The notes under the pieces were generated by a model. That model was not told where the DNA came from. It did not search any database and was given only the letters and a program-made list of their open reading frames with translations. Position numbers and translations under genes: made by a program. From NCBI GenBank assembly GCA_903874345.1, contig CAIQRY010000065.1:2679-66678 (forward strand): DNA of 64,000 bases. The letters run 5' to 3'. This document shows, piece by piece, positions 9,729-60,438 of this stretch. How positions within the stretch are numbered: the stretch's first letter is position 1; every line of letters begins with the position of its first letter. This DNA comes from an uncultured bacterium (lineage in GTDB: Bacteria; Patescibacteriota; Patescibacteriia; Patescibacteriales; UBA12465).

Positions 9729-10103
9729 CTATTCTACTTCCTGGGCTTTTTCTTTAACTTGAGACGGAATTTGCCAAGGCTTCTTAGTCTTATTCTCTTC
9801 TCCCAGATACGGTGAATTTTCCCGATTTTTCCACATCGAGATTTCGCGATTAATTTTATCAGTTAAATCTTCTTCTGTCAAATTTTCTAAAATACTGGTT
9901 TTTTCTTTTTCTTTAGCCATTTCCGGAGCCACACTGGCGACCGGATGCGGCTGAGTCAAAACCTTGTTTTCGACCAAGCCGGCGTAATTATTTAAATCCA
10001 TAAGCACATAAGATTCGTCCGGCGTATTATGGTCAAACAGAATCACCCGATCACCGGTCGTCTTAATAAGATTAAGGATTTTTTTTAATTGCTCGGGAAA
10101 CAT
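9729..10103 (-). CDS. Hypothetical protein, 124 aa, embedded between fusA and tuf
   Basis: Clean ORF with a 9-bp gap to the upstream gene. No recognisable motif, acidic/lysine-rich C-terminal half. Confidence 0.55.
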   Translation of the reverse strand: MFPEQLKKILNLIKTTGDRVILFDHNTPDESYVLMDLNNYAGLVENKVLTQPHPVASVAPEMAKEKEKTSILENLTEEDLTDKINREISMWKNRENSPYLGEENKTKKPWQIPSQVKEKAQEVE

Positions 10104-10112
10104 ATATAAAAA

Positions 10113-10766
10113 TTAATTTCTTTGATCTAGCTTCTTCTCGCCGAAATAACGGACAACTCCATTAACCACCGGAACCAACTTTTCGATACAGATAATTTTA
10201 TCTTCTAAGCTTAGTTCTCCATAATCATCTCCATTTTTGAGAGGTTCCGGAATAATACTGCACATACCGAGCAAAAGCTTATAAGCCTCTTCATTCATCT
10301 TCATCTCTTCGCCTGGCAAAAGATTAATCGGGTCAAAATAATTTCTGAATTTAATAACGCCGGTCGCGAAATTAAGACCAAGTCGGTTATGGCTGTAATA
10401 AGCCTGTGCTTCCGGAGAAAGTTGCTCTAAATATTTTCCTTCCCAAACTCGGCGCGCGCCATGATCATCAAAATTATCGGTAATAATCGGGCTATCCAGA
10501 AAAGCTTCCATTTTCTCAAGTAAGCTTTGCAAATTAAGCTTTTCTTGAACACTTAAATTCTTATTGAACAAATTCCAATTCAAAGTAGCGGGTAAAGCAT
10601 CTTTAGCAATTTTTCTCTTCGGCTCCCGAAACTTAAATTCAACGCCTTCAAATTCTTTACCTTTAGCAATTATCTCCTTACGGATACGCATCTCAATCTC
10701 TTCCTTGGTCTCGACTTCTTTAGCCACCGTTTCTTGAACTAAGCTAGAAGAAAACTGCTCATTCAT
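10113..10766 (-). CDS. Hypothetical protein, 217 aa, embedded between fusA and tuf
   Basis: Clean ORF starting 7 nt after the fusA stop. No recognisable family signature. Confidence 0.6.
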   Translation of the reverse strand: MNEQFSSSLVQETVAKEVETKEEIEMRIRKEIIAKGKEFEGVEFKFREPKRKIAKDALPATLNWNLFNKNLSVQEKLNLQSLLEKMEAFLDSPIITDNFDDHGARRVWEGKYLEQLSPEAQAYYSHNRLGLNFATGVIKFRNYFDPINLLPGEEMKMNEEAYKLLLGMCSIIPEPLKNGDDYGELSLEDKIICIEKLVPVVNGVVRYFGEKKLDQRN

Positions 10767-14878: not shown

Positions 14879-14910
14879 AAAAAACCGCCCTGTTTAAGGA
14901 GCGGTTTTTG
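14879..14910. terminator. Bidirectional rho-independent terminator between rpmB (+) and hutH (-)
   Basis: AAAACCGC...GCGGTTTT stem with T-run on plus and A-run (U-run on minus) flanks. Confidence 0.6.
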
Positions 14911-14954: not shown

Positions 14955-16652
14955 TTAGGCGATGGCGGACAAAAGTTCGTCGCCGTCCATGAGGGAAACT
15001 ACCTTGTTCCAGTCGACACAAAGGATGCGGTCATCATCCATCGGCGGTAAAACCGAACGGATAATTTTATAAGCGGCATCGGTTTTGGCGCCGAGTTGAC
15101 CGTGACCTTCTTTTGCCAGATCGGCTTCGGTTAATGATATTCCCTGGGCAGCGGCCATAATCTCGGCGGCAATCACTCGGTAGGAATTCTTGAGCACCTT
15201 AGTCAGATGACGAGCGGAAATTGTGCTCATACTGACATAGTCTTCCTGGTTCGCGGAAGTCGGGATTGAATCAACCACGGAGGGGTGACACAAAACCTTG
15301 TTCTCGCTGACCAACGCGGCGGTCGAATACTGTAAGATCATGAGACCGGTGTTCAAAAGAACATGCGTCTGTCCAGCCAAGTCGCTGGGCAAGCCATAGC
15401 TAGTTGAAGACATAGTCAGAGCATAGAAACGGCGATCGGAAATATTGGCCAGCTGCTGTAAGGCAATCTTGAGGAAGTCGGCGGCCTGTCCTAAAGGTTC
15501 CCCGTGGAAATTGCCACCGGAAAGAGCTTCAAAACTACCATCCGCTTTTTCAAAAACCAGCGGGTTGTCAGTCGCCGCATTAATCTCATCCAGGAAGATT
15601 TTTTCTGCATACCAGAACGCCTGGTAAACTGAACCGGCCACTGGCGGATAAGCACGGAAAGAATAAGCATCCTGCACTCTCGGTGTCGGCTGATCATTCT
15701 CCATGTACCTCTTGGATCCTTTTTCGGCTGGTAAACATACTTCCCTGGCCTCTTTGGTCATTCTCTGAGAGCCAGCCACCAGCTTGAGCATCCGCTCAGC
15801 CACCCATTTCGCACCATGGTTATTTCTGATTCCAATTAAACGGGGATCAAAAGCCGCGGTCTCGCCCCGGATAGCTTCCAGAGAAAGAGCAGCGGCCAGG
15901 TCAGAAAAGCTGAGTAACCTCTTGGCGTCATGAATAGCCAGGAGTCCCAGGGCCAGAGTAAAGGTAGCGCCATTGGTTAAACCCATGGCTTCCTTGGCTC
16001 CCAGAACCAGTGGTTTCACATTCATAATCTCCAGAGCTTCAACAACCGGCATCGGTACTCTCTGATTGGGAGTAATCGCGTTTTTTGGCAGAAGGACATT
16101 TTGTCCTTTCAGGCCGACCAAAGCAGCCGCGACGTGCGCCAGAGGCGCTAAATCGCCGCTTGACCCAACCGAGCCCTGTTCCGGGACGCAAGGGATAATT
16201 CCCTGGTTGTAAAATTCCAGGATCTTTTCACAGGTTTCAAGCCGCATGGCCGAATAACCCGTGGCAAAGGAGTTGACTCTGAGAATCATCGCTGCCCGCA
16301 CTACCTCTTCCGGAAAATATTCTCCGGTCTGGACGCAGTGCGCCGGAATGTAATGCTTCTGATAAGCGATGATTTCTGCTTCGGGGATGATTGTCCCCTT
16401 TTTTATTCCGCATCCGGTGTTGACGCCGTAGATAATGTCACCCGCCTTGATACGGGCTTCGAGGCCGGACCTCTTTTTCTGAATCCGCGCCGTCGCGTTA
16501 TCGGCGTGATTGTTTTCGTTCACATTATCCTTGCCGTTTGATAAAACAACAACCGGATAATGATGGTCTCCGTGGCAATCGTGATAACCACGTGCAATCA
16601 TGACAACCTCCTTGAGGGTCAAGTCATGACCAGTTAAAACTACTTTTTTCAT
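14955..16652 (-). CDS. hutH: Aromatic amino-acid ammonia-lyase family protein, most likely histidine ammonia-lyase, with Ser-Ser-Gly at the MIO position
   Basis: 565 aa; YGVNTGCG then GSVGSSGDLAPLAHVA (HAL/PAL signature GxxGASGDLxPLxH with A to S) and NPLV region. Urocanase is encoded 3 kb away. Confidence 0.85.
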   Translation of the reverse strand: MKKVVLTGHDLTLKEVVMIARGYHDCHGDHHYPVVVLSNGKDNVNENNHADNATARIQKKRSGLEARIKAGDIIYGVNTGCGIKKGTIIPEAEIIAYQKHYIPAHCVQTGEYFPEEVVRAAMILRVNSFATGYSAMRLETCEKILEFYNQGIIPCVPEQGSVGSSGDLAPLAHVAAALVGLKGQNVLLPKNAITPNQRVPMPVVEALEIMNVKPLVLGAKEAMGLTNGATFTLALGLLAIHDAKRLLSFSDLAAALSLEAIRGETAAFDPRLIGIRNNHGAKWVAERMLKLVAGSQRMTKEAREVCLPAEKGSKRYMENDQPTPRVQDAYSFRAYPPVAGSVYQAFWYAEKIFLDEINAATDNPLVFEKADGSFEALSGGNFHGEPLGQAADFLKIALQQLANISDRRFYALTMSSTSYGLPSDLAGQTHVLLNTGLMILQYSTAALVSENKVLCHPSVVDSIPTSANQEDYVSMSTISARHLTKVLKNSYRVIAAEIMAAAQGISLTEADLAKEGHGQLGAKTDAAYKIIRSVLPPMDDDRILCVDWNKVVSLMDGDELLSAIA

Positions 16653-16654
16653 TG

Positions 16655-18079
16655 TTATGGGATTTTGGTGATGGTTTGAAAATAACTAATTAATTTGGTA
16701 ATTGGGATTTCTTCTTGACGTCGCGTGAACAGATTTTTTATCTTAACGGTTTGTTGATTAAGTTCATCGCGACCGATAATAATAACATAGTTAACACCTT
16801 GGCTAACCGCAAAATTAAACTGGGCTTTGAAAGTCGTATCTTCTAACAAAGAAACTTCTACTTTTAGCCCTGTTTTTCTCAAGCGGTTGGCCAGACGCAA
16901 ATAATAAGCGTCTTGGTCTGTAGTTAAACGGAGAATCAGTATTTCAGACACAGATTTTTTTTCAATCTTGAGCGTGCCTAATTGCTGTAAAGCAGAAAAC
17001 AAACGATCGACGCCAATCGAGGCGCCGACAGCGGGTAATTCCCGACCCGTAAAGCGAGCCACTAAATCGTTATAGCGACCGCCCGAAAAAACGCTCCCAA
17101 ATTCCGGAGCATCGAAGAGAAAGGTTTCAAAGACCGGACCGGTATAATAATCCAGACCGCGGGCAACGGAGAAATCAATTTCGACCGCGGCGGTCGGAAT
17201 AGCCAGGGGCTCGAGATACTTCATTATCTCGACGAGCTCGGCTAAACCTTCTTCCGCAATGGAAATATGTTGGAAGAGTTTTTGAGCTTGAGAAATCTTA
17301 GTTAAATTATCTCCGCTAATTTCCAGGTATTCCTGAAGTCGAATTAAATTCGCTTCCGTCAAACCAGGACTGGGATCAAATTCGGTCACGGGTTCTTGCC
17401 GCAGTTCATCAAAGACGGCAGCAATTCCAATCTTTGGGATTTTGTCCAAAATTCTCATCACTTCTTTGGTAACATCAGCCGCTGTAATTTTCTGGCGGTC
17501 AGTAATACCAAGTAAATCCGCCAAGCCGTTTAAAATTTTACGGTTGTTGATCTTGATGATGAAACGTTCCAGGCCTAAGGCCCGAAGCGTTTCGTACATA
17601 ATGGCAATAATCTCCGCATCCGCGAGCATTAAGGCGCAACCGGCGATATCAACATCAAATTGATAAAACTGACGGTAACGTCCTTTTTGCGGCGAATCGC
17701 TGCGAAATACCGGACCCACGACCATCCGTCGCCAGGGCAATTTAATGCCAGGGTTAGCCGACAAAAAACGGGCCAAGGGAACAGTGTGATCGAAACGCAA
17801 GGCTAAACTATCCTCATTGTTCGAACCGCGGCTGCGGACTTGGAAAATATTTTTCGAAGTCTCGTCAGCCCCAGTCAAAACTTTGGCAAATTCCACCATT
17901 GGGGTCTCTATCGGATTATAGCCAAAGGAACGGAAAACTTGATTGATGATATTTAGCATCCTCTCCCTGGCTAAAAACTCCCCGGGATTAAAATCCAGGA
18001 AACCACCAGGTCTTTCGGGTTTAATTGTTATTTTCATGATTTTCAGGGGTTTATAAGGGTTAATTGTTAACGTACGCAA
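16655..18079 (-). CDS. hisS: Histidyl-tRNA synthetase (class II, full length with anticodon-binding domain)
   Basis: Motif 2 FRSDSPQKGRYRQFYQFDVDIAG and motif 3 SGGRYNDLV...PAVGASIGVDRL. 474 aa; start may be the internal MKIT. Stop lies 2 nt before the hutH start. Confidence 0.88.
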   Translation of the reverse strand: MRTLTINPYKPLKIMKITIKPERPGGFLDFNPGEFLARERMLNIINQVFRSFGYNPIETPMVEFAKVLTGADETSKNIFQVRSRGSNNEDSLALRFDHTVPLARFLSANPGIKLPWRRMVVGPVFRSDSPQKGRYRQFYQFDVDIAGCALMLADAEIIAIMYETLRALGLERFIIKINNRKILNGLADLLGITDRQKITAADVTKEVMRILDKIPKIGIAAVFDELRQEPVTEFDPSPGLTEANLIRLQEYLEISGDNLTKISQAQKLFQHISIAEEGLAELVEIMKYLEPLAIPTAAVEIDFSVARGLDYYTGPVFETFLFDAPEFGSVFSGGRYNDLVARFTGRELPAVGASIGVDRLFSALQQLGTLKIEKKSVSEILILRLTTDQDAYYLRLANRLRKTGLKVEVSLLEDTTFKAQFNFAVSQGVNYVIIIGRDELNQQTVKIKNLFTRRQEEIPITKLISYFQTITKIP

Positions 18080-18231
18080 TAAGACATCTTAGCCGGAAAC
18101 GGCTAAATTGTCAAAATGCTAAAGTGCGTAACTTTTCAACGCTTTACTTGCCTAAAGAGTGCTCTTATGCTAATGTGAGGACGTTTCAAAAACTTGATTT
18201 GTTCATTTCACAATTACTAAATAAATGCCCC

Positions 18232-19059
18232 ATGAAAAGAAAAAGAAAAATAACAATATTTTCTGATCAAGACGGCGTCCTGATCGACAAAGCCTTTCAT
18301 TGTAATTACTCCTTCTGTGAACTTGGCCGATTGCTTATTAAAAATAAAGCCATCCTGGTCCCCAGTTCGGATACACCCGCCGAAAGACTCCGGTTTAATT
18401 TTCAATTATTTACCGGCGTAAAAATCAATACGGTTATTGCCGAACGCGGCGGGGTTATTCTCCATAAGCAGCAAGAAGTTTTTCGCTTGCAACTACCGTC
18501 ATCGGAAATCGTAAAATATCTACAGGCTCTACGCCACTTAGCGAAAAGCTTTAAAGCAACAATTTACACTGGCGACTCGGTTACTTGGATAAGAACCAAC
18601 AAAATCTTCAAGTCTAATGCGAGCGTGATTATCTTTGACGCTTTCCGTAAAACTTCCATTGGCTATTATGCCCGGCGAACAAACCAAAGTGGTTTAGCCA
18701 TGATTGATGATATTTTCTATGATGAGTTTACGACTGAAGCTAAAAAAATTCCGCGACCAAGTTTCTTCGAAGTAAGTGACTACAATCAAACTTACGGCAT
18801 CGCCCTTATTAGTTCGGCGCAAGCAACTAAAACCGCGGGCTTCTTAAACTACCTGCGACTCTTCGGGCTGGAAGATCAGGCGGATGATAAATATTACATG
18901 ATCGGCGATTATAAAACCGATATTATCGAAGATCCTCGTATGACTTTGCTCGCCGTCGGTAACGCCGATGATGAGTTAAAGGAAAAGGCGACTTTTATTT
19001 CTAATTTCCCCCAAGCGCGCGGGATGATGGATTGCATCAATTACGCGTTATCGTTATGA
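18232..19059 (+). CDS. HAD-superfamily hydrolase (Cof-like IIB phosphatase)
   Basis: Motif I ITIFSDQDGVLID (DxDGxL), GDYKTDI and AVGNADDELK motifs. Start at internal Met 18232; the upstream part of the ORF overlaps the hisS start and is not coding. Confidence 0.75.
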   Translation: MKRKRKITIFSDQDGVLIDKAFHCNYSFCELGRLLIKNKAILVPSSDTPAERLRFNFQLFTGVKINTVIAERGGVILHKQQEVFRLQLPSSEIVKYLQALRHLAKSFKATIYTGDSVTWIRTNKIFKSNASVIIFDAFRKTSIGYYARRTNQSGLAMIDDIFYDEFTTEAKKIPRPSFFEVSDYNQTYGIALISSAQATKTAGFLNYLRLFGLEDQADDKYYMIGDYKTDIIEDPRMTLLAVGNADDELKEKATFISNFPQARGMMDCINYALSL

Positions 19060-19102
19060 AATAATATTGTTAATTATTCTAGTTTAAAAGGAGAACTAAA
19101 AA

Positions 19103-19480
19103 ATGATTAAAAAATTAGCTTACCTAGAAATTGTGGTTATTGATTTTGAGCGGGCCGTAGAATGGTACACTAAAATTTTAGGCCTTGAGCTTGACGGTGA
19201 AATTGCCAAAGAACAAAGCGGACTCTGGTGTCAGCTTAAAACCCAAACTGGAGATAAGCGGCTCGCCCTCTGGCAGCCGGTTTGGATACCGAGCCAGGAA
19301 AAAAATCTTTATTCTTTTATCCCCATCTTTGAGGTTTCCGAACTTGACGAGATAGTAGCTGACTTAAAACAAAAAGGAGTTAAATTTCTGGAAGAAATTC
19401 GGCAAATGGTTAATTATCGTATTACGACCATCGCCGATCTGGAAGGAAATAGACTACAACTATTTGAACCAAACTCGTAG
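19103..19480 (+). CDS. VOC/glyoxalase-bleomycin resistance family protein
   Basis: 125 aa with glyoxalase-like beta-alpha-beta-beta-beta pattern (LAYLEIVVIDFERAVEWYTKILG...). Confidence 0.65.
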   Translation: MIKKLAYLEIVVIDFERAVEWYTKILGLELDGEIAKEQSGLWCQLKTQTGDKRLALWQPVWIPSQEKNLYSFIPIFEVSELDEIVADLKQKGVKFLEEIRQMVNYRITTIADLEGNRLQLFEPNS

Positions 19481-19508
19481 TTTCAAAACAAATAACCAAG
19501 AAATAAAA

Positions 19509-19536
19509 AACCCCATTTTTCAAAATGGGGTTTTAT
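19509..19536. terminator. Bidirectional rho-independent terminator (CCCCATTTT-TC-AAAATGGGG + TTTTAT) between the VOC gene and hutU
   Basis: 9 bp perfect stem, A-run upstream and T-run downstream, between convergent genes. Confidence 0.8.
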
Positions 19537-19555
19537 AAAACTTAAAAATGTTCTT

Positions 19556-21568
19556 TTACTTCTTTTTACTGACTGCTTCATTAATAACTGCCAAATCAAC
19601 CAGGTAAGGCAAGGTAATCTGCCCGTCACGATTTCCTTTGTTCCACTCCGCTGCAGTTTTTAATGCGCCGTCTTTCCTGGCCCAAGCGCGACGAGCGACT
19701 CCGCCCATCACATCCCAGGACAATCCGCATTTGATAATCCTATCCACTCGTTTGGTGCCATCCAGGAGCAGGCTGTTACCGCCATTAATGGCCCGGCCAA
19801 TACCGACCCCGCCACCGTTAGACAGAACGACCATGGTAAAACCGCGAGCGACATTACCGGCAAAACATTGCGTCGCCATATCGGCTGTTGGTTTGCTACC
19901 GTCATAGATATTAGCCGTTTCCCGATTAGGCGAATCCGTGCCGGAAACGTCGTGGTGGTCACGGCCCAACATAATCGGTCCGATCTCGCCGTTTCTAACT
20001 GCCTTATTGAAAGCCAAGGCGATTTTTATCCTTCCCTGTTCGTCGTTGTACATGATGCGCGCCTGGGTGCCAAGAACTAAATCGTTTTTCTCGGCATCGG
20101 CAATCCATTGGTAATTGTCGCGGTGCAAGGAACTCTGGGTCGGATCAATCAGAGACATCACAATTTGATCCGTCTTTTTCAGGTCTTCTTTTTTCCCGCT
20201 CAAACAAACCCAGCGGAATGGTCCGAAGCCATGGTCGAAACAAATCGGCCCCATGATATCCTCGACATAGGAAGGCCAGATGAATCCGTCGTTGGTGTTC
20301 ACGCCGTTTTTAGCAATTTCCTTAAGGCCGGATTTGAAAACGGCATTCATAAAATTATTGCCGTAGTCCCAGAAACGAACGCCCCGCTCGGTCAGATTTT
20401 TAATCGCTATGAAATGGCGCTTTAATGATTCGTCAACCATTTTTTTAAAGCGTGTCTTCTTTTTACTGAGTAGATAGCGGCCTTCTGCAAAATCAACGTC
20501 CACTGGCGTATAACCGCCTTCATAAGCAGCGTGACAGGACGTTTGATCAGAAAGCAAATCGACATCCACATGATAATCAACCAGGTATTCGAGCAGATCA
20601 ACGATGTTACCGTGATAGGCGAGAGCCAGGGGTTGTTTGGATAATTTGTACTTCTCAATCAAATAAGCAACTTCGCTCAAATCAGAAGTATATTGATCAA
20701 TCCAGCCCCTCTCCTTGCGCAGCTTAATGCGTCCCTGATCAACTTCGGCAATAACAGCGATTCCGCCAGCAATCTTAACAGCTTTGGGCTGAGCGCAGGA
20801 CATGCCGCCCAAACCAGAAGAAACAAAACATTTACCGGCTAAATTCTGATCTTCGCGCACGCCTAAATACTGTCGGGCGGCGTTAAGGATAGTAATATAG
20901 GTACCATGAATGATGCCCTGAGTACCGATATACATCCAGCCGCCGGCCGTCATCTGACCATAATTAGAAACGCCCAGAGCAGCCAGTCGCTTGAACTCTT
21001 CGGCATTATCCCATTCACCGACCAGTAAAGCGTTGGTGCAGATAACGCGCGGCGCATTGACCGAGGACTTAAAAAGCCCAACCGGATGCCCCGAACTGAT
21101 AACCAGAGTCTGATCACGGCGCATTGCCTGTAAATATTTCTTGACCAGGAGATACTGCATCCAATTCTGAAAAGTCTGCCCAGTCTCGCCATAGGTGACG
21201 AGCTCATAGGGATAAAGAGCGACATCGAAGTCAAGATTATTATCAATCATGACTTGCAAGGCCCGGGCTTCAGGGATGCCTTCATATTGGTCCATCGGCT
21301 TTCCGTAAATCCTTCCTTCGGGACGGAAACGATAAGCATAAATTCGGCCGCGAGTTCGGAGCTCTTCTAAGAATTCATCGACCAGATCAGCGTGCCTTTC
21401 GGCGGGAATGTAACGTAACGCGTTTCGGAGCGCCAGTTCAATCTCCTTCGGTTCAAGCTCTAAAGCGCGATCAGGCGCTCGCATGAATTTCGGGTCGAAA
21501 GTTTTTGGCGGCGGTAATTCGGCTGATAACTTGATTTCCATAGAATCAGCAATGTCTGAATTTCTCAT
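19556..21568 (-). CDS. hutU: Urocanate hydratase (urocanase), long form
   Basis: 670 aa; YGQMTAGGWMYIGTQGIIHGT matches the urocanase signature (GQMTAGSWIYIGPQGIVHGT), NAD-binding Rossmann segments. Confidence 0.9.
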   Translation of the reverse strand: MRNSDIADSMEIKLSAELPPPKTFDPKFMRAPDRALELEPKEIELALRNALRYIPAERHADLVDEFLEELRTRGRIYAYRFRPEGRIYGKPMDQYEGIPEARALQVMIDNNLDFDVALYPYELVTYGETGQTFQNWMQYLLVKKYLQAMRRDQTLVISSGHPVGLFKSSVNAPRVICTNALLVGEWDNAEEFKRLAALGVSNYGQMTAGGWMYIGTQGIIHGTYITILNAARQYLGVREDQNLAGKCFVSSGLGGMSCAQPKAVKIAGGIAVIAEVDQGRIKLRKERGWIDQYTSDLSEVAYLIEKYKLSKQPLALAYHGNIVDLLEYLVDYHVDVDLLSDQTSCHAAYEGGYTPVDVDFAEGRYLLSKKKTRFKKMVDESLKRHFIAIKNLTERGVRFWDYGNNFMNAVFKSGLKEIAKNGVNTNDGFIWPSYVEDIMGPICFDHGFGPFRWVCLSGKKEDLKKTDQIVMSLIDPTQSSLHRDNYQWIADAEKNDLVLGTQARIMYNDEQGRIKIALAFNKAVRNGEIGPIMLGRDHHDVSGTDSPNRETANIYDGSKPTADMATQCFAGNVARGFTMVVLSNGGGVGIGRAINGGNSLLLDGTKRVDRIIKCGLSWDVMGGVARRAWARKDGALKTAAEWNKGNRDGQITLPYLVDLAVINEAVSKKK

Positions 21569-21667
21569 AATAAAGGTTTAGGGTTAATAATTGACTATTT
21601 TAAATTTGTAAAGGACAAATCACTAAGCGTGATTAAATATCTTAGCTCTTCCCGGCGCCTCACGTCA

Positions 21668-21695
21668 ATAAAAAACTCGCTTATTTCTAAGCGAG
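21668..21695 (-). terminator. Rho-independent terminator immediately 3' of tRNA-His on the minus strand
   Basis: CTCGCTTA-TTTC-TAAGCGAG perfect 8 bp stem followed (minus strand) by a UUUUUU run. Confidence 0.75.
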
Positions 21696-21701
21696 CTCTC
21701 G

Positions 21702-21776
21702 GGGGTATGACGGGGTTCGAACCCGCGACCCTCAGATCCACAATCTGATGCTCTAACCAACTGAACTACATACCCC
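21702..21776 (-). tRNA. tRNA-His (anticodon GTG) with genomically encoded G-1 paired to C73; CCA not encoded
   Basis: Reverse complement folds as a cloverleaf: 7 bp acceptor GGGTATG/CATACCC plus extra 5' G opposite C73, D-arm GTTC/GAGC with AGTTGGTTA loop. Anticodon stem TCAGA/TCTGA with loop TTGTGGA, T-arm GCGGG-TTCGAAC-CCCGT. Confidence 0.9.
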
Positions 21777-21844
21777 GTATATTTTTATAATAAAGATCTA
21801 TTTAATTTTCTTTTTATAATACCAAAATAATTAAATAATGTCAA

Positions 21845-22522
21845 CTATGACTTATTTTTATATACAATCTCAGAATATAGAGATTTCTTCTTATTATAAA
21901 ATTTGGCCCACTCCTTATCACCATAAGAAAAATGCCACCACTCACCATAAAACGGGGCTAGTCCTTGGGCGACTAATAAATTATGAAGAAGAGTTCGATT
22001 AGCTATTTGTTTCCGACTAATTTTTTTTGAAAAAGTTTTTATTTTTTCCGAGTCATGATAGTCCGCAATCTTCGTCCCCATATCTAATTCTCGACCCTGA
22101 GAAACTATTGTTATGTCGACCGCTCCGCCAACGCTATGGCCAGCGACATCTGGCGAAGCCACAAAATTATGAGTTAATGACGTTAACGCAAAATCATTTA
22201 ATCGAGGATATTTTTCGGCCAACTTCTTTTTAAATTGTTTGAAATATTTCTGCTGAATAGCGGGGTGACGATAACCATAAACTATCTTTAATTTAGCCTC
22301 GGGTAATAATTTTTGCAGTTTTTGATTGGCTCTATTTAATTTGACTCCTAAACTTTTCCGAACCAAAATATTAAAACCAACATAAGGTCGCATGTCTTTT
22401 TTTTGATAATGGCAGATTATGTCCGGATAAAGCTTATTTAAAACAACTAGCGGTTCTTTATTATCGCCACCGGCAATTTTTTGTAAATCCTGATATTTTA
22501 AAATTTTTTTTACTCTTGGCAT
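21845..22522 (-). CDS. M15 family D-Ala-D-Ala dipeptidase/carboxypeptidase (VanX/VanY-like)
   Basis: SPDVAGHSVGGAVDITI (SxHxxGxAxD zinc motif) and EWWHFSYGD (VanX EWWH motif); 225 aa. Confidence 0.7.
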   Translation of the reverse strand: MPRVKKILKYQDLQKIAGGDNKEPLVVLNKLYPDIICHYQKKDMRPYVGFNILVRKSLGVKLNRANQKLQKLLPEAKLKIVYGYRHPAIQQKYFKQFKKKLAEKYPRLNDFALTSLTHNFVASPDVAGHSVGGAVDITIVSQGRELDMGTKIADYHDSEKIKTFSKKISRKQIANRTLLHNLLVAQGLAPFYGEWWHFSYGDKEWAKFYNKKKSLYSEIVYKNKS

Positions 22523-22560
22523 AAATAATCCCTTTATTTTTTAAATTTTAACACATTTTT

Positions 22561-22590
22561 TTAAAAAAGCCCACCTAAAAAGGCGGGCTT
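22561..22590 (-). terminator. Terminator after the GNAT gene (minus strand)
   Basis: GCCCACC/GGCGGGC stem (one mismatch) with flanking A/T runs. Confidence 0.5.
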
Positions 22591-22610
22591 TTGCATTTAT
22601 CATTTTTATT

Positions 22611-23186
22611 TCAAACGATTTCGCCATACAAATAAATTCGGCATTTACTCGCGGAGACAACGCCGATAGCGGAAACATCCTGGCAGAAGCCATTTATTTT
22701 CTTGGCTCCCAACTTAAGATAAATTCCCAAGGAATTACTACCTTCAGACGCAGTGCGCATCACATAAGTTTTGATTCCCTGTCCTTTGGCCCAGACCCAA
22801 CGCTGCTTAATTAACTCAGTGCCAATTCCTCGCTGTCGATAATCAGACATAACGGCCACTTCCGACATATAGCACGCGTCAATCCAGGAAAAAGGTAATT
22901 TCAAATTATGACTCAGAGAATCACGAACATCGCTGTTCGGTTCACCGGCCTGAATTTGTTTAAGTGGGATACTACAACTTAAACCGACAACTTGTTCATC
23001 AGCCAAGGCTAAAAAGATACAGCCTTTGCTCAAGTGCGGTTTCCAAACCCAGTTAAGAACCTCATCGCTTTGATAAGTTTCAAAGTAGGGCGGACCAGCA
23101 AAAACCTCTTTATAAACCTGGATAAATTCTGCTTGATAATGTGCGGAGGAGTCTGCTGTCACTTGGACAAATTTAATTTCCGGCAT
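22611..23186 (-). CDS. GNAT family N-acetyltransferase
   Basis: Motif A RQRGIGTELI, 191 aa. Overlaps the upstream gene by 14 nt. Confidence 0.75.
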   Translation of the reverse strand: MPEIKFVQVTADSSAHYQAEFIQVYKEVFAGPPYFETYQSDEVLNWVWKPHLSKGCIFLALADEQVVGLSCSIPLKQIQAGEPNSDVRDSLSHNLKLPFSWIDACYMSEVAVMSDYRQRGIGTELIKQRWVWAKGQGIKTYVMRTASEGSNSLGIYLKLGAKKINGFCQDVSAIGVVSASKCRIYLYGEIV

Positions 23187-23928
23187 CTTTTACCTCCATT
23201 TCGCTTTTTAAGATTACATCATTCGATTCAATTAAGACTTCGATCATCTGACCGGTCGGTTGAATTATTCGACTGGCGCTCAAAACTCGAGCAGCCGCAA
23301 TAGAACCAGAGCCGCAAGACGATTCGTAAAAGAAAGAATCAACTCCTTTGACCCAGACGACAGGATCAATTTTTACTTCCGAGCCTACCCGGCTAGTCCA
23401 AATAACACCAACAGCTTCCCGATTTTCCAAACCAAGCGTTTTAACAACCTGGCGGTGTTCACTTTCGTAACTTTTGCTAGGAAATTCCGTTTCCATCACG
23501 ACATGAACAATCCCTCCTAAATCGACTAAAGTGGCCGGCTGGTTTAAAGATAATGCTTTAATCTTAAGTGGCATATTCGGGAAACGGCATTGCACGAAAA
23601 ATTTATTCTGTCCCAAATCTTTAACCTGACCCTGAACTAAGCCAGGAAAACCGGACATCGTGAATTCAACTTGATGCTGTTTTTTAATCTGCGCGAAAAG
23701 AATAGCGACCGCCCGTGCGGCGTTACCGCAAAATTCTCCACCGCTCATTTCAAAATGATTATCGCTAACAATCAAAAAGCCGGCTTGCTCAACCTGCTGC
23801 GCTTGATTATTATTAATTAGATCTCGGCCCAGATTTTCATACTCGGCCTTTGTTTTTGGCACAGCTAACACCTGGATAGCCGTGATGTTCCCGCCGGCAG
23901 CGGCGATGATGTACAGATTCTTGTCCAT
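23173..23928 (-). CDS. Diaminopimelate-epimerase-like protein (DapF/PhzF fold, PLP-independent racemase family)
   Basis: Two Cys-containing half-site motifs, GGEFCGNAARAV (cf. DapF MCGNGAR) and ESSCGSGSIAAARV (cf. DapF ACGTGA); 251 aa. Confidence 0.5.
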   Translation of the reverse strand: MDKNLYIIAAAGGNITAIQVLAVPKTKAEYENLGRDLINNNQAQQVEQAGFLIVSDNHFEMSGGEFCGNAARAVAILFAQIKKQHQVEFTMSGFPGLVQGQVKDLGQNKFFVQCRFPNMPLKIKALSLNQPATLVDLGGIVHVVMETEFPSKSYESEHRQVVKTLGLENREAVGVIWTSRVGSEVKIDPVVWVKGVDSFFYESSCGSGSIAAARVLSASRIIQPTGQMIEVLIESNDVILKSEMEVKDAGN

Positions 23929-24011
23929 ATTAAACTGAATTTATTTGTTTTTACTATTTTAAAAGAGCGCTTGTCTTCTTAACTACTAAGAAGGGTCCGA
24001 ATCAGCAAAAA

Positions 24012-24344
24012 TTATTCCTGATTCCGACTCTGCTTGGTAGCCGAGTCGGAATGGTGGTGCGCTCTTATTTTATCAATTATTGTCTTATAACCGTTCATGC
24101 CATGATTAAGCCATTTCGAAATACGAGCAATCGTCGCGGAACTTAATCCGGTTTCCTTTTCGATTTCGATATACGATTTCTTGTTTTCAAGCATTTGGGC
24201 GGCATGCCACCGTTTACCGAATTCAAGAATTTCTTGCTCGGTCAAAAGATCGCGAAAAAACCGGCGCGCTTCATCAAGATCATTCAATCTGAGAATCGCT
24301 TCGTATAAATCGGCGGAAAATATATTGTTATTATCTTTAATCAT
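24012..24344 (-). CDS. TrpR-like DNA-binding protein (YerC/YecD family)
   Basis: 110 aa; ...GLSSATIARISKWLNHGMNGY... resembles the YerC/YecD helix-turn-helix family. Confidence 0.6.
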   Translation of the reverse strand: MIKDNNNIFSADLYEAILRLNDLDEARRFFRDLLTEQEILEFGKRWHAAQMLENKKSYIEIEKETGLSSATIARISKWLNHGMNGYKTIIDKIRAHHHSDSATKQSRNQE

Positions 24345-24410
24345 TTTTTCACTTCACCTTAATAAAGCACTTTATCATATTAAAGCATCGGCAAATACTT
24401 GTCAAGAGAT

Positions 24411-24440
24411 ATAAAAAACTCCCTTCTTCGGGGAGTTTAT
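24411..24440 (-). terminator. Rho-independent terminator 3 nt after the methyltransferase stop (minus strand)
   Basis: AAACTCCC-TTCTTCG-GGGAGTTT 8 bp stem with an A-run on plus (U-run on minus). Confidence 0.7.
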
Positions 24441-34187: not shown

Positions 34188-35954
34188 TTATTCCAAAACC
34201 GCCTTAATTCGTCTTACTCCTGAGCTCGAGGCTTCCTCTTTTTGAATCTTGAAATGACCGAGCGCTCCGGTATGGGTGACATGCGGACCGCCGCAGATTT
34301 CTTTTGAATAATCAGCAATCGTATAGACCTTAACTTTCTCGCCATACTTTGAATCAAAAACACCCATCGCGCCCCGCTCTTTTGCTTCGTTAAGTGACAT
34401 CTCGGTCATAACGACCGGCCAATCGTGACTAATCGCGTCGTTAACCAAGGCCTCGACTTGTGCAATCTGCTCCGGCGTCATCTTTTCGGGATGCGAAAAA
34501 TCTAAACGTAGTCTTTCCGGCGTAATATTGCTTCCCTTCTGCGTCACATGCTCGCCCAAGACTTTTCGGAGCGCGGCAATCATCAAATGCGCCGCGGTAT
34601 GTAGTTTTGTCGTTTCTTCTCCGCCATCCGCCAAACCGCCCTTGAATTTTCCGGCCGCGGCCGTGCGCGAAAGGTCTTGATGTTTTTTAAGTTCGGCTTC
34701 AAAGCCGGCACGATCAACGCTCATCTTATTTTCTTTGGCTAGTTCTTCGGTTATCTCTAAAGGAAAGCCATAACTCTGATATAACATAAAAGCTTCGGCG
34801 CCGCTAATTTCCTTGCCCGTTATTTTTTTAAATTCTAATAAACCTTTTTCTAAAGTCCGATCAAACTTTTCTTCTTCTTTATCTAAATTATCAAGGATAA
34901 AATTCTTATTCCTAATTAATTCCGGATAGACCTGGCCATAATCCTTAATCACGACCAAAGCGATTTCCTTGGTCCAAAGATTTTGTTTAATCCCTAATTG
35001 CCGGCCGTAGCGAATCGCCCGGCGAATCAAGCGGCGGATAATATAACCTTGATCCGTATTGGACGGCGTTAGTCCGCGGTCATCACCGATTAAAAAAGTC
35101 GCGGCTTTGATATGATCGCTAATGACGCGCATCGCCTTTTTTGTTTCTTCGTTCTCATTATATTTATGCCCGCTTAATTCCTCGACCTTAGTAATTAAAT
35201 TAGAAAATAAATCAGTCTGATAATTATCATCAAAACCGTTTAAAACCGCGATTGTTCTTTCTAAGCCTAAACCCGTATCCACATTCTTCTGAACAAGCGG
35301 TTCGAAATGGCCGCCCCCCTGCTTATTATATTCCATGAAGACATTATTCCAGATTTCAACCCAGAGTTCGCTATCATCATTAAAGCCTACCGGCACATTT
35401 TTAGCGTCCCCAGCGAAGTAAAAAATTTCCGTATCCGGGCCGCAGGGTCCGGTTAAGCCAGCCGGTCCCCACCAATTATTTTTTTTCGGTAATTTCGCAA
35501 TCCGCTTGGCGTCGACTCCTAAGGATAGCCATAAGTCATATGACTCCTGATCAAAAGGCGCATCAGCGTCACCCTTAAAAACAGAAACGGCCAAACGGTT
35601 CTTATCTAAATTCAGCCACTGAGGAGAAGTTAAAAACTCCCAACTCCATTTAATCGAGTCCGTTTTAAAATAATCGCCAAAAGACCAATTACCCATCATC
35701 TCAAAAAACGTATGATGCTTAGCGTCGCCGACCTCGTCGATATCATCGGTCCGCAAACATTTCTGGGCGCTCGTGAGGCGTCGGCCAACCGGATGCGCCG
35801 TGCCCATTAAATATGGAACGAGCGGATGCATGCCCGCGGTCGTAAACAAGACAGTCGGATCGTTTTCCGGAATTAAAGAAGCACTCGTAATTACGGCGTG
35901 TCCCTTAGTCTTAAAAAAATTTAAATAATTTTGTCTTAATTCTCCTGAAGTCAT
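34188..35954 (-). CDS. alaS: Alanyl-tRNA synthetase, truncated form (catalytic + tRNA-recognition + editing core, no C-Ala/oligomerisation domain)
   Basis: 588 aa; class II AlaRS N-terminus (FTTAGMHPLVPYLMG), WGPAGLTGPCGPDTEIF. Editing-domain metal ligands HTAAHLM ... CGGPHV; ends where the usual C-terminal third would begin. Confidence 0.85.
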   Translation of the reverse strand: MTSGELRQNYLNFFKTKGHAVITSASLIPENDPTVLFTTAGMHPLVPYLMGTAHPVGRRLTSAQKCLRTDDIDEVGDAKHHTFFEMMGNWSFGDYFKTDSIKWSWEFLTSPQWLNLDKNRLAVSVFKGDADAPFDQESYDLWLSLGVDAKRIAKLPKKNNWWGPAGLTGPCGPDTEIFYFAGDAKNVPVGFNDDSELWVEIWNNVFMEYNKQGGGHFEPLVQKNVDTGLGLERTIAVLNGFDDNYQTDLFSNLITKVEELSGHKYNENEETKKAMRVISDHIKAATFLIGDDRGLTPSNTDQGYIIRRLIRRAIRYGRQLGIKQNLWTKEIALVVIKDYGQVYPELIRNKNFILDNLDKEEEKFDRTLEKGLLEFKKITGKEISGAEAFMLYQSYGFPLEITEELAKENKMSVDRAGFEAELKKHQDLSRTAAAGKFKGGLADGGEETTKLHTAAHLMIAALRKVLGEHVTQKGSNITPERLRLDFSHPEKMTPEQIAQVEALVNDAISHDWPVVMTEMSLNEAKERGAMGVFDSKYGEKVKVYTIADYSKEICGGPHVTHTGALGHFKIQKEEASSSGVRRIKAVLE

Positions 35955-54550: not shown

Positions 54551-55567
54551 TTATTTGGTGGCTAAGATGCTGCGTTTATAAGAATCCAGATTATCCAAAG
54601 CGATTCCGGTTCCCTTAACAACACAAAGCATGGCGTCGTCGGCCACATAAGCCGGAACGCCGGTCGTGCGCGCGATAAGCTGATCGATATTTCGAAGAAG
54701 CGCACTACCGCCGGTTAAGACGATTCCCTTATCCATGATATCCGCCGCCAGTTCCGGCGGTGTTTTTTGTAAAACTTTTTTGGCCGCGGAAATAATCGCT
54801 TCGAGTTCGTTCTGAATCGCTTCGGTCACGTCATCACTTGAAACAGTAATGCTTCGTGGCAAGCCCGTCACGATATCGCGACCACGAATCTCTAAATGCA
54901 ATTTATCTTCCATATACAAAGCCGAGCCGATATTAATCTTAATTTCTTCCGCGGTTCGTTCGCCAATGGCTAAATTATATTTCCGGCGCACATATTCCAA
55001 GATTGCCGCGTCAAACTTATTACCGCCCACGCGGACCGAAGTCGAAGCAACGATACCGCCTAAAGAGATAACGGCCATTTCCGCTGTTCCGCCGCCGATA
55101 TCAATCACCATATGCCCGGTTGAAGAGCCAATCGGAATATCGGCGCCAATCGCCGCGGCGACTGGTTCTTTAATGATATAGGCAGCTTTGGCGCCGGCGG
55201 CAATAGTTGCTTCAATTACGGCGCGCCTTTCCGTCGAAGAAATACCAGCCGGGACAGCTACCATCACTTCCGGTCGAAATAAGCGAACGCCGCCTAAGGT
55301 TTTATTAATAAAATAGCGGATCATGGCTTCGGTTGCCTTATAATCCGCAATCACTCCGTCTTTTAGGGGCCGAACGGCCATAATCGTATCTGGGGTGCGG
55401 CCAATCATGTCTTTCGCTTCATTACCCACGGCTAAAATCTTCTTATCGTCCAACGATACCGCCACTACGCTCGGTTCATTAATAACAATCCCGCGCTTCG
55501 GCAGGTGTACTAAAGTATAGGTTGTTCCGAGATCGATCCCGATTCGTTTAATAAACATAAGTGGCAA
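54551..55567 (-). CDS. mreB: Actin-like rod-shape protein MreB paralog
   Basis: 338 aa; IGIDLGTTYT phosphate-1, VIDIGGGTAEMAV, MreB family throughout. Second copy besides the one at 60440-61480. Confidence 0.85.
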   Translation of the reverse strand: MPLMFIKRIGIDLGTTYTLVHLPKRGIVINEPSVVAVSLDDKKILAVGNEAKDMIGRTPDTIMAVRPLKDGVIADYKATEAMIRYFINKTLGGVRLFRPEVMVAVPAGISSTERRAVIEATIAAGAKAAYIIKEPVAAAIGADIPIGSSTGHMVIDIGGGTAEMAVISLGGIVASTSVRVGGNKFDAAILEYVRRKYNLAIGERTAEEIKINIGSALYMEDKLHLEIRGRDIVTGLPRSITVSSDDVTEAIQNELEAIISAAKKVLQKTPPELAADIMDKGIVLTGGSALLRNIDQLIARTTGVPAYVADDAMLCVVKGTGIALDNLDSYKRSILATK

Positions 55568-59084: not shown

Positions 59085-59648
59085 TCACGAAAATCGTTTC
59101 GGTTCCAGAAAAAAGGGCTGTAATTTTCGGTTTAGGGCCGCGACCAAATGGTAAGAAAGCAGGGCCGCGAGAAGGCTCCAGGCGCCTTGTTCAAAAAGGG
59201 CCAGCCAAAAATCTTTTTGGACTAAGAAAAAACGAGTGTAATCAGCCGCCGTAAAATAAAATAAACAAGCGACTAGAAAATTATAAAGAATCGTGGCCGC
59301 TAAAATCAAAACAAAGAAAGAGTAAAGGGAGCGATTAGTCAGCCAGTTTTTGAGCATGAGTTGCGCTAAGCCGGCCGTGGTTAGAAGAACGATAATAAAA
59401 AAACCAAAAAATTGAAAAGAAATTAAGTCGAGCCAAAAACCGAGAACAAACGCGGCCCATAAGGCGACACGGAAACCGAAAAAAAATAGAGTGAAAATCA
59501 AAAAAATCAAAACTAAATTGATTTGTCCGAACCAAGACGGCCAGGCGCTAATTAAAGAAAATTGGCCGATGGCTGCCAAGGAAGCAAAAAAAATAAAAAT
59601 AATAACCCTGAGTGCCGCTTTCATACTAAGGAATAATGATACTGACAA
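59085..59648 (-). CDS. mreD: Rod shape-determining protein MreD (membrane)
   Basis: 187 aa, five hydrophobic helices, immediately downstream of and overlapping mreC. Confidence 0.6.
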   Translation of the reverse strand: MSVSLFLSMKAALRVIIFIFFASLAAIGQFSLISAWPSWFGQINLVLIFLIFTLFFFGFRVALWAAFVLGFWLDLISFQFFGFFIIVLLTTAGLAQLMLKNWLTNRSLYSFFVLILAATILYNFLVACLFYFTAADYTRFFLVQKDFWLALFEQGAWSLLAALLSYHLVAALNRKLQPFFLEPKRFS

Positions 59649-60438
59649 TCGTCAGATTATTAAAATCTACTAGCGGTTCAATCGTCGCGTCAGTCCAAAC
59701 CGCATTACTCTCGCTGCGCACTTCCTTAACGCGACCAATGACGAGACCCCGCGGAATATTAGCGCCTAGGCCGGAAGTGACGACCGTCGCGCCGGCATTA
59801 ATTTTTTCGGTTTGCGGAATATAATTCATTTTAATGGTTAGGCCTAAGTCGCCATCCGTTACGCCTTGCGTCTGGCTTTGATTCTGAACCATGGCCGCCA
59901 ACTTGCAACCTAAACTGGTCGTCAAGCAAATCCGCGCACTCGTGTCTTTTAGGGCCGTAATTTTACCGACAATCGTCCCGGAAGGATCGGCCACCGCCAA
60001 GCCAATTCTTAAGCCATCATTCGCTCCGCGATTAATAACTAAATCCCGACTCGCTTCCCCGGCCTCGGCCGCTCCTTCTTGGCCAATAATGCCGGCCGTC
60101 ACCGCCCGCCAATTATTAGTCGCTAGAAAATTAGCTTGCGCCCGCAATTTTACATTTTCAGTCGCTGTTTCCTGACAATTCGCATTGGCAACCGTTAGCT
60201 CGGCTACTTGTTTTTCGAGTGTATCGAGCCGTGTTGTTAAATCTGTTTGATTCTGGCGAGCCGTATAATTATGATTAAAATTACGACCCACGCTATATAA
60301 ATAACCGGAGAGCGGTTTAGTAATTAGAGATAAAAAATTCTCCACCGGACGGAGAACGTGAGCCCCATGTAAAAAAACCAGCAGTCCGAAAACTACTAGC
60401 CAAACGAGTAAAGTTTTATAGCGTTTTAATTTAACCAT
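59626..60438 (-). CDS. mreC: Rod shape-determining protein MreC
   Basis: 270 aa; N-terminal TM, coiled-coil, beta-rich C-terminal domain with GLVIGRV motif. Confidence 0.8.
   Translation of the reverse strand: MVKLKRYKTLLVWLVVFGLLVFLHGAHVLRPVENFLSLITKPLSGYLYSVGRNFNHNYTARQNQTDLTTRLDTLEKQVAELTVANANCQETATENVKLRAQANFLATNNWRAVTAGIIGQEGAAEAGEASRDLVINRGANDGLRIGLAVADPSGTIVGKITALKDTSARICLTTSLGCKLAAMVQNQSQTQGVTDGDLGLTIKMNYIPQTEKINAGATVVTSGLGANIPRGLVIGRVKEVRSESNAVWTDATIEPLVDFNNLTIVSIIIP

Follow-up and report, generated by a model that had tools for sequence, protein, structure and literature searches.

The DNA analyzed here is a stretch of 64 kb from contig CAIQRY010000065.1 of an uncultured Patescibacterium; "the window" below always means this whole stretch. 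It contains a block of about 9.5 kb (14.9-24.4 kb) with a clear histidine theme. At one end of the block lies hutH (14955-16652), encoding a histidine ammonia-lyase (HAL), which is preceded by a histidyl-tRNA synthetase (HisRS) gene, below called hisS2; the urocanase gene hutU (19556-21568) and a tRNA-His gene (21702-21776) are located further upstream. All four features are on the minus strand, as claimed in a first-pass annotation of the window, and are supported by open reading frames (ORFs) and by Pfam, NCBIfam, ARAGORN and Rfam evidence, at positions that agree with that annotation to within one base. The 2-nt spacing between hisS and hutH is also real, the junction reading TAA-CA-ATG. 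The frame initially assigned to hisS, 16655-18079, is indeed open from a TTG codon, but gene callers on identical contigs start the gene at the ATG in position 18037, which gives the coordinates 16655-18037 and a product of 460 aa.

The interval of 1.5 kb between hisS2 and hutU is not empty, as it contains two plus-strand genes identified by Pfam, for a HAD-IIB (Cof-type) hydrolase (18232-19059) and a VOC/glyoxalase-fold protein (19103-19480). This pair is a lineage-specific insertion on the opposite strand, absent at this position in the related loci L089-L091 (loci other than the window are denoted by such labels). Directly upstream of the tRNA gene there are four further genes of the same conserved block (21845-24344), encoding a repressor (HisR), a histidine-racemase-like protein, a GNAT acetyltransferase and an M15 peptidase. 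Consensus scans suggest four transcription units: hisR-racemase-GNAT-M15, tRNA-His, hutU, and hisS2-hutH. The histidine theme noted in the first pass is real and conserved, and it is wider than was noted, comprising HisR, the histidine-racemase-like protein, tRNA-His, HutU, HisRS and HAL. Thus the earlier observation is confirmed, and the earlier interpretation, as discussed below, is partly supported.

Conservation of the HAL-HisRS linkage

The comparison covered 11 independent loci of the Candidate Phyla Radiation (CPR) clade, with HALs 46-100% identical to that of the window. Loci from outside the CPR, among the matches listed in HAL-alignment and HAL-protein scans (HAL identity about 40%), served as the background. 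A HisRS gene lies within 5 kb of the HAL gene in 10 of the 11 CPR loci, versus 4 of the 64 listed non-CPR loci with comparable flanks (Fisher p = 1.3e-8), and therefore the linkage is not due to chance. The initial doubt that relatives might show no linkage of these genes has been removed, as the juxtaposition of hisS and hutH is kept in relatives. In particular, the two genes are adjacent or overlapping in the window, L089, L090, L091, L172 and L179. Other arrangements are also observed: HAL, two tRNA-His genes and HisRS in L173, divergent genes in L174, and two or three intervening genes in L175 and L180. The divergences of HAL and of the linked HisRS co-vary (Spearman 0.88). Moreover, a tRNA-His gene is found within approximately 6 kb of HAL in all ten CPR loci with a linked HisRS, and also in L061.

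The full block is present in three other Patescibacteria (L089-L091; HAL 59-71% identical), while everything outside the block differs. The order of genes is TrpR-like, CntK_N-domain, GNAT, M15, tRNA-His, (urocanase), HisRS, HAL. The urocanase gene is found near HAL in 4 of the 11 CPR loci, compared with 10 of 11 for the linked HisRS. Among the accessory genes, those that recur encode GNAT (7 of the 11 loci), zinc hydrolases (of the M15 family in four loci and of the AstE/AspA family in three), an S51 peptidase, a PNP-family phosphorylase and a Cof-type HAD hydrolase. The cluster is typical of a Patescibacteria group that is Falkowbacteria-like.

Several features of individual loci were observed in addition. 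The Cof-type HAD hydrolase (Hydrolase_3) stands beside HAL in 5 of the 11 loci: the window (18232-19059, plus strand), L172 (12979-13857), L179 (11886-12683), L180 (7776-8585) and L092 (12892-13746). The PNP_UDP_1 phosphorylase occurs in L173, L180 and L092. In the distant clusters of L173 (16292-17640), L174 (11721-13709) and L175 (8461-9804), the M15 peptidase is replaced by a zinc deacylase of the AstE/AspA family paired with GNAT, and hence an acylation/deacylation pair seems to be a recurrent companion of the linked HisRS and HAL. L092 (8314-13746; HAL 53% identical) is the sole CPR-clade HAL locus with neither HisRS nor tRNA-His; its HAL is flanked by a B12-binding radical-SAM protein, the PNP-family phosphorylase and the HAD hydrolase, with a tRNA-Glu gene nearby. 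Finally, L061 (7637-11578), from a metagenome-assembled genome (MAG) labelled Anaerolineales bacterium HSG24, carries two tandem tRNA-His genes, a 534-aa HisRS and a HAL 37% identical to that of the window. This locus was left out of the 64-locus comparison, its downstream flank being too short, and its trio of genes points either to a linkage that evolved independently or to a contig placed in the wrong bin.

Enzymes of the cluster and the two types of HisRS

The product of hutH (565 aa) belongs to a Patescibacteria-specific clade of HALs of the family with the 4-methylideneimidazole-5-one (MIO) cofactor, and matches PF00221 over residues 49-532 (E 3.7e-147); a terminator follows the gene at 14880-14909. 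Residues Y53, H83, N195, Q277, Y280, R283, F329 and E414 of the P. putida HAL correspond to Y75, H105, N227, Q327, Y330, R333, F382 and E470 of the window protein, and in the alignment all eight are invariant among 36 members of the clade. The residues that separate HAL from phenylalanine and tyrosine ammonia-lyases (PAL, TAL) are His83 and Glu414. Since all HAL-specific and catalytic residues are present and invariant in the clade, we treat the protein as a divergent HAL, with histidine as the predicted substrate. Compared with HALs of solved structure, the clade carries two insertions. The MIO motif, GSVGSSGDLAPL, contains the triad S164-S165-G166, whose first residue is Ser and not the usual Ala; Ser is also found here in the clade consensus, and a literature search for HALs with a Ser-Ser-Gly MIO triad returned none.

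The first-pass annotation had itself considered that the protein could be a PAL/TAL or an aminomutase, which would make the histidine theme partly illusory. The scores below the curated cutoffs for HAL, the additional matches to aminomutase and TAL models and the SSG triad in place of ASG point in this direction. Still, HAL models are by far the best-scoring ones, the equivalents of His83 and Glu414, as well as every other catalytic residue of HAL, are retained throughout the clade, and the neighbors (HutU, HisRS2, tRNA-His, HisR and the histidine-racemase-like protein) are all related to histidine, which makes such an assignment extremely improbable.

The long-form urocanase encoded by hutU (670 aa; PF17391, PF01175, PF17392) exceeds the cutoff of TIGR01228 (420.6 bits versus 375), while thiourocanate models remain far under their cutoffs. 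It matches the T. cruzi urocanase 6uek with E 1.7e-169 and is 60% identical to a homolog from rumen Clostridia. The gene has its own promoter-like site (21639-21668) and terminator (19507-19534).

The lower part of the Hut pathway is absent from the surroundings. Hidden Markov models (HMMs) of HutI, FTCD_N and FTCD_C were built from 159 listed non-CPR HAL loci, among which HutI is found in 45, FTCD_N in 35, FTCD_C in 20 and the long-form HutU in 52. These HMMs gave no match at E<=10 in 482 ORFs of the window and eight CPR loci; L179 and L180 have no HutI or FtcD Pfam family on record, and no HutI or FtcD was found within 10 kb of the ten related loci. The Pfam scan of window ORFs also yielded no amidohydrolase, arginase or FGase domains, which bears on HutG and HutF. 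Hence the remark that neither hutI nor hutG is visible in the window holds.

HisRS2, the product of hisS2, scores above the cutoff of TIGR00442 (355 bits versus 287) and keeps motif 2 (fRsdsPQkGRyRQFyQ), the HisA motif RGLDYYTG, motif 3 GGRYndL and the anticodon-binding domain PF03129. It is of a cyanobacterial/Bacteroidota/eukaryote-like type, its best PDB matches being 3net (Nostoc), 6nhi (Elizabethkingia) and human HisRS. All HAL-linked HisRSs are of this one type, with mutual identity of 34-82%, and are 25-30% identical to another type, HisRS1, of 429 aa, which is structurally closest to the HisRSs of Thermoplasma and trypanosomes. HisRS1 is the type conserved across Patescibacteria (at least 69% identity among the best 120 matches), and the named organisms among these 120 matches are Patescibacteria or Falkowbacteria, save one labelled "bacterium".

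In L090, a 429-aa HisRS is encoded 7 kb downstream of the cluster on the same contig, and it is 28% identical to the linked one. Similarly, the protein clusters P0017 (HAL), P0136 (linked HisRS) and P0243 (429-aa HisRS) have one common longest contig of 25,859 bp. As for the organism of the window, the HisRS1 cluster P0304, 27% identical to the window HisRS2, occurs in the same ENA samples as contigs identical to the window, and the longest contig is 400,209 bp both for P0304 and for P0121, the cluster of the linked HisRS of the window. The tetranucleotide correlation of P0304 contigs with the window is r = 0.93, equal to that of the window with itself, versus 0.37-0.87 for other CPR loci. The P0304 contigs are also syntenic with the region adjoining the cluster in L090. 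By its sequence type, the linked HisRS is a second, divergent paralog and not the housekeeping enzyme, and the 429-aa HisRS1 is almost certainly encoded in the window genome as well. The initial description of the linked hisS as the synthetase that consumes histidine for translation has to be corrected in this respect, the housekeeping type being the 429-aa one found in the same samples.

A simpler arrangement would be a supra-operon in which a single housekeeping hisS and its tRNA are grouped with the first two Hut enzymes, no paralog being involved. It is consistent with the score of the linked HisRS above the hisS equivalog cutoff, with the presence of the anticodon-binding domain and with tRNA-His being the only tRNA gene in 64 kb; moreover, the evidence for two HisRSs does not extend to L173-L175 and L180. 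However, the second HisRS of the Patescibacteria type on the L090 contig, likewise on the 25.9-kb contig (as judged from matching longest contigs), and in the samples of the window organism, with the same longest contig of 400,209 bp, renders this arrangement quite unlikely.

The HisRS2s of the window group are 50-60% identical to HisRSs of Desulfobacterales, and in Desulfonema the gene of this type has a housekeeping context and no HAL. Because of this identity and context, HisRS2 is very likely to be an active synthetase with a history of transfer between phyla. Linkage of the HisRS2 type to HAL in Desulfobacterales was considered and ruled out, given the housekeeping context of the Desulfonema gene. 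According to a 2022 review, there is no characterised full-length duplicate of HisRS, HisZ being the only case (PMC9437257). No T-box or other leader RNA was found ahead of hisS2, as Rfam (gathering threshold, E<=1) finds only the tRNA.

The tRNA-His(GUG) gene, predicted by ARAGORN at 21701-21775 and by Rfam at 21702-21775 (67.2 bits), is the sole tRNA gene of the window. The span 21702-21776 given in the first pass is exactly that of the mature tRNA, with the encoded G-1 (21776) facing C73 (21702). The gene has a strong promoter of its own (21816-21844, 11/12 match) and a terminator formed by a hairpin and a T-run (21670-21695). In the other clusters, tRNA-His genes (L089, 6222-6295; L090, 7592-7665; L091, 8389-8462; L173, 11673-11829; L174, 8161-8237; L175, 8154-8229) vary at the main identity element: G-1:C73 is encoded in the window and L089 only, while in the rest position -1 is A, C or U and position 73 is U, C or A, and CCA is encoded in two of them. 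The variation at -1/73 may be related to the presence of two HisRS types.

Both HisRS2 and the tRNA-His might have a role outside translation, HisRS2 acting as a sensor or allosteric partner of HAL, or His-tRNA serving in a reaction of the GNAT enzyme. The coupling or overlap of hisS2 and hutH in six genomes, the precedent of HisZ, a HisRS paralog that regulates a histidine enzyme, the variability of the linked tRNA-His at -1/73 and the presence of GNAT in 7 of the 11 loci are compatible with it. At the same time, HisRS2, unlike HisZ, retains the catalytic motifs and the anticodon-binding domain, and the GNAT loop is of the acetyl-CoA type, so that we find this explanation doubtful. We give a slightly better, though still low, chance to the idea that HisRS2 and tRNA-His form a dedicated pair tied to HAL, which would operate either as a sensor of charging state or histidine that gates HAL, or as a semi-orthogonal charging channel.

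The HisR operon and relocation of the block

The upstream operon starts with hisR (24012-24344, minus strand), which encodes a TrpR-family repressor of the YerC/YecD type (110 aa; PF01371, E 8.6e-21; TIGR02531, 78.9 versus a cutoff of 42.2) and is kept in L089, L090, L091 and L174. A consensus scan places a promoter-like site of the operon, TTGACA-17-TAATAT, at 24377-24405 (minus strand), and its TTGACA box is invariant in four genomes; a bidirectional terminator precedes it (24416-24438). Two tandem palindromes CTTTA-N6-TAAAG, the predicted HisR operators, one exact (24370-24385) and one with a single mismatch (24352-24367), overlap the -10 box and the start of this promoter. The tandem is invariant across four aligned genomes, and the operator is found once in a fifth genome; L089, L090, L091 and L174 together contain 9 exact matches to CTTTA-N6-TAAAG, of which 8 are located upstream of hisR. 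These palindromes had been picked out before the comparison with the published HisR consensus, cacTTTAnnnnnnTAAAgtg, a 20-bp palindrome (PMC9413887), and they fit it. YerC of B. subtilis is HisR, a histidine-responsive repressor, and histidine stimulated DNA binding by R. gnavus HisR in vitro (PMC9413887).

Only two exact operator matches are present in 64 kb, that of hisR and the palindrome CTTTACTTGCCTAAAG (18142-18157), which precedes the -35 box in the promoter of hisS2-hutH (18086-18114) by 27 bp. A HisR-like site with one mismatch (21598-21613) lies ahead of hutU. From the predicted sites, autoregulation of hisR is well supported, while control of hisS2-hutH and hutU by HisR in the window genome is only suggested, since L090 and L091 lack the hisS site. 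As a conserved regulatory element of hisS2-hutH the site was rejected: it is exact in the window only, L089 has a weak variant with an N8 spacer, and L090 and L091 have none.

The second gene of the operon (23173-23928, minus strand) encodes a protein of 251 aa that resembles cofactor-independent histidine racemases of the DapF/CntK fold family. Its top NCBIfam matches are HisR-Fuso, NF052224 (86.8 versus a cutoff of 400), and CntK, NF033599 (53.8 versus 300), and it matches the histidine racemase of F. nucleatum, 9cr1, with E 2e-19. Both catalytic Cys motifs, GGEFCGNA and SSCGSG, are kept, with the equivalents of Cys67 and Cys209 in the alignment with 9cr1/9cr6. Genes for similar proteins adjoin HAL in two non-CPR loci, L012 (7488-8105, a Tissierellaceae MAG) and L101 (9592-10359, a JGI metagenome contig), and these neighbors support a link of the racemase family to histidine catabolism. 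The GNAT acetyltransferase gene (22611-23186, minus strand; 191 aa; PF00583, E 3.3e-9) overlaps the racemase stop with its start by 14 nt, and the overlap is kept in L089-L091; an acetyl-CoA loop, RQRGIG, can be recognized in the alignment. The last gene (21845-22522, minus strand) encodes a VanX-like metallopeptidase of the M15 family (225 aa; PF01427, E 1.9e-13), whose matches to D-Ala-D-Ala dipeptidases are weak and all below cutoff. The GC content at third codon positions (GC3) of this gene is 0.292 (z = -3.7), the lowest in the window by far, while its operon partners are average.

Such companions could also belong to a cluster of resistance or detoxification directed against a histidine antimetabolite or an inhibitor of HisRS. 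HisRS2 would then be an insensitive copy of the target, with GNAT acetylating the toxic amino-acid analogue, M15 cleaving a Trojan-horse dipeptide and HAL degrading the analogue. Extra copies of aminoacyl-tRNA synthetases are most often resistance genes (PMC9437257), the weak best matches of GNAT are acetyltransferases of the streptothricin and phosphinothricin/methionine sulfoximine types, and the peptidase belongs to the VanX family. Yet none of these similarities is strong or specific, the repressor that governs the cluster is from a histidine-responsive family, urocanase and the histidine-racemase-like enzyme indicate ordinary histidine chemistry, and enzymes of the HisRS2 type are ordinary housekeeping HisRSs in other phyla. 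We consider this explanation unlikely.

The position of the block differs between genomes. Both flanks of the L091 cluster have a collinear counterpart in the window at 39.7-55.6 kb (MreB 91% identical), and at the equivalent site the window has two small ORFs only, whereas the window cluster is located between ComEC/methyltransferase and L28/S12 genes; the clusters of L089 and L090 have yet other neighbors. Since the four clusters sit among differing neighbors, the block moves as a whole between sites of a backbone that is otherwise collinear.

In composition, no other 9.4-kb stretch of the window is as atypical as the block, with its tetranucleotide correlation of 0.913 versus 0.949 +/- 0.012 for other chunks, and the HAL and hutU genes have the highest GC3 in the window. 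In relatives, the cluster genes match their neighbors in GC3. The k-mer and GC comparison proposed in the first pass thus reveals a deviation, though a mild one, and a recent foreign origin was rejected on this ground and because the genes match their neighbors in relatives. All named nearest relatives of the HAL (45-80% identity) are from Patescibacteria.

Earlier, the cluster had been interpreted as a possible horizontally acquired cassette, with the tRNA gene as an integration anchor. The cassette idea is half right: the sites differ and the composition is atypical, but a source beyond the CPR is unlikely for any recent transfer. The role of the tRNA as an anchor was rejected: in four genomes the gene is internal to the conserved block, with M15 on one side and hutU/hisS2 on the other; its 3' half is not duplicated, even when up to 3 mismatches are allowed; the block ends have no meaningful direct or inverted repeats; and no integrase domain is present among the annotated genes. 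The full version, an island taken up recently from another phylum with tRNA-His as the integration site, gains from the composition, including the extreme GC3 values of HAL, hutU and M15, from the different sites in related genomes and from the identity of HisRS2 to Desulfobacterales HisRSs (55-60%) and of hutU to that of Clostridia (60%). It is nevertheless very unlikely, given the internal position of the tRNA gene, its single 3' half, the missing integrase and terminal repeats, the GC3 match in relatives and the Patescibacterial affiliation of named HAL relatives down to approximately 45% identity.

The rest of the window carries ribosomal protein operons and genes for EF-G/EF-Tu, RpoA, Mur/MraY/FtsW, MreBC, a glycosyltransferase and ComEC, and the nearest named relatives of the window proteins are from Candidatus Falkowbacteria and other Patescibacteria. 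Between EF-G and EF-Tu, in an otherwise canonical S12-S7-EF-G-EF-Tu-S10 operon, there are two ORFs of 217 and 124 aa (9729-10766, minus strand) with no Pfam match, and both are also predicted by gene callers on identical contigs. Two MreB paralogs (54551-55567 and 60440-61480) and MreC (59626-60438) are encoded within 7 kb; one of the MreBs is the one 91% identical to MreB of the L091 genome. The alanyl-tRNA synthetase ORF (34188-35954; 588 aa) comprises the catalytic core and tRNA_SAD, and is far shorter than the usual bacterial enzyme.

Predicted function and comparison with known systems

We interpret the cluster, with moderate confidence, as a portable, conserved, HisR-controlled module for deamination and salvage of histidine that has its own charging system. 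Of the ideas proposed in the first pass, that of a histidine-balancing module is the best current reading. The core of the module would be HAL, translationally coupled to the accessory HisRS2, together with the separately and strongly promoted tRNA-His. In this lineage, the urocanase and the operon of HisR, the histidine-racemase-like protein, GNAT and the VanX-like peptidase would be accessory. HAL, and urocanase if present, would deaminate imported L-histidine, so that ammonia is freed and surplus histidine is removed. The host is most probably unable to make histidine, and this could be why the catabolic drain is hard-wired to HisRS2 and an extra tRNA-His, which would keep the share of histidine needed for translation despite the drain. 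HisR would sense histidine and repress its own operon, and in this genome the promoters of hisS2-hutH and hutU may be further targets. The most likely role of the racemase, the peptidase and GNAT is to supply or buffer L-histidine.

Several observations weigh against this interpretation. The HAL does not reach the curated NCBIfam cutoffs (466 versus 524 for NF006871, 439 versus 539 for TIGR01225), though HAL models are the top-scoring ones for the 565-aa protein, with aminomutase and TAL models also matching. The metabolic pay-off of HAL is not evident, as no hutI or ftcD is found nearby and the urocanase is present in 4 of the 11 loci. The genes hisS2 and hutH form one operon, and hence the charging and degrading enzymes would be co-regulated, whereas the Lactobacillus hisS is separately regulated by a T-box. 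The hisS2-hutH palindrome is at approximately -70, an unusual position for a repressor site, and is not kept in L090 and L091; moreover, histidine-dependent repression at this promoter would shut HAL off at high histidine, the opposite of what is expected for catabolism. The presence of HisRS1 in the very same genome is a strong inference and not a direct read. Finally, histidine auxotrophy of the organism is assumed from general CPR biology.

The canonical Hut system (hutH-hutU-hutI with hutG, hutF/hutG or ftcD) shares with the cluster HAL and urocanase with intact active-site and family signatures. It differs in that the 64-kb window has neither HutI nor a formimidoyl-glutamate enzyme, and that the HAL of the cluster is tied to HisRS2 far more than to hutU (10/11 versus 4/11 loci).

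The closest resemblance is to the amino-acid decarboxylation islands of lactic acid bacteria. The histidine decarboxylase (HDC) island of L. parabuchneri is mobile and comprises a tRNA gene, hisS with a His T-box, hdcB, hdcA, an antiporter gene and histidine-regulated peptidase genes, while the housekeeping hisS2-aspS operon is separate from it (PMC5313534). The extra hisS was proposed by the authors of that study to secure histidine for translation during its consumption (PMC5313534). The enterococcal tyramine cluster tyrS-tdcA-tyrP, with its tyrosine decarboxylase (TDC), provides a second precedent with an extra tyrS (PMC3315439). As in these islands, the enzyme that consumes the amino acid is here encoded beside an extra cognate synthetase distinct from the housekeeping copy, and, as in the HDC island of L. 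parabuchneri/buchneri (hdcP-hdcA-hdcB-hisS), which is mobile en bloc within the species, genes for a tRNA and a peptidase are included. The extra synthetase of HDC and TDC islands responds to the amino-acid level, while in the cluster a HisR-type site at hisS2 is found in the window only. The enzyme of the window is an ammonia-lyase (with or without urocanase), not a decarboxylase, and neither the window nor the related loci encode such a decarboxylase or an antiporter, so that no proton-motive gain is obvious. Further differences from the HDC island are the predicted control by the HisR protein repressor with no T-box found by Rfam, the co-transcription of hisS2 with the catabolic gene, the Patescibacterial host and the addition of the racemase-like and GNAT genes.

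In the HisR regulons described for Firmicutes, Actinobacteria and Synergistetes (Ashniev et al. 2022), the repressor is likewise of the YerC/YecD type of the TrpR family, with autoregulatory sites and a TTTA-N6-TAAA palindrome. Known HisR regulons cover histidine biosynthesis and uptake, while the window has no his genes, and its predicted HisR targets are the racemase-like, GNAT and peptidase genes, to which hisS2-hutH and hutU may have to be added. Patescibacteria are not treated in that paper, which describes a hisR paralog beside hutH in Oscillibacter and hisR2 beside tdc-tyrS in Enterococcus (PMC9413887). Given these precedents and those of the HDC and TDC islands, the cluster can be read as a HAL-based, HisR-controlled variant of the HDC-island principle in Patescibacteria.

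Two further systems share single traits with the cluster. In HisZ-HisG, a protein of the HisRS family is also genetically coupled to a histidine-metabolising enzyme, but HisZ is biosynthetic and has no anticodon-binding domain or adenylation, whereas HisRS2 is full-length, with all motifs, and its partners are a catabolic enzyme and a tRNA. The racemases HisR of F. nucleatum and CntK of S. aureus have the same DapF-like two-cysteine fold, both Cys motifs of which occur in the window protein; here, however, the similarity is distant and far under the cutoffs, cntL and cntM are absent, and the context is histidine catabolism and charging.

A literature search found no description of hut genes in the CPR or of this arrangement in Patescibacteria. 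Patescibacteria are assumed to be amino-acid scavengers with almost no redundant genes. A whole group of them keeps two HisRSs, one of which, along with tRNA-His, stays linked to an enzyme that destroys histidine, under the predicted control of a histidine repressor. If the proposed interpretation is true, the principle known from lactobacilli, a drain combined with a private charging enzyme, would extend to another class of enzymes and to a very distant lineage, and the cluster would be the first candidate HisR regulon beyond the phyla of its description. It would also draw attention to an incomplete Hut route that stops at HAL or urocanase, with no downstream enzymes, for which ammonia, pH and detoxification are candidate pay-offs. 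The less probable case of a dedicated HisRS2-tRNA-His pair would imply a new way in which minimal-genome symbionts divide an essential amino acid that they scavenge between translation and catabolism, and its sensor form would be a catabolic counterpart of HisZ-HisG. For the proposed module as a whole, the small soluble proteins and the defined operator would provide a tractable handle on the budgeting of an essential nutrient in ultra-small symbionts.

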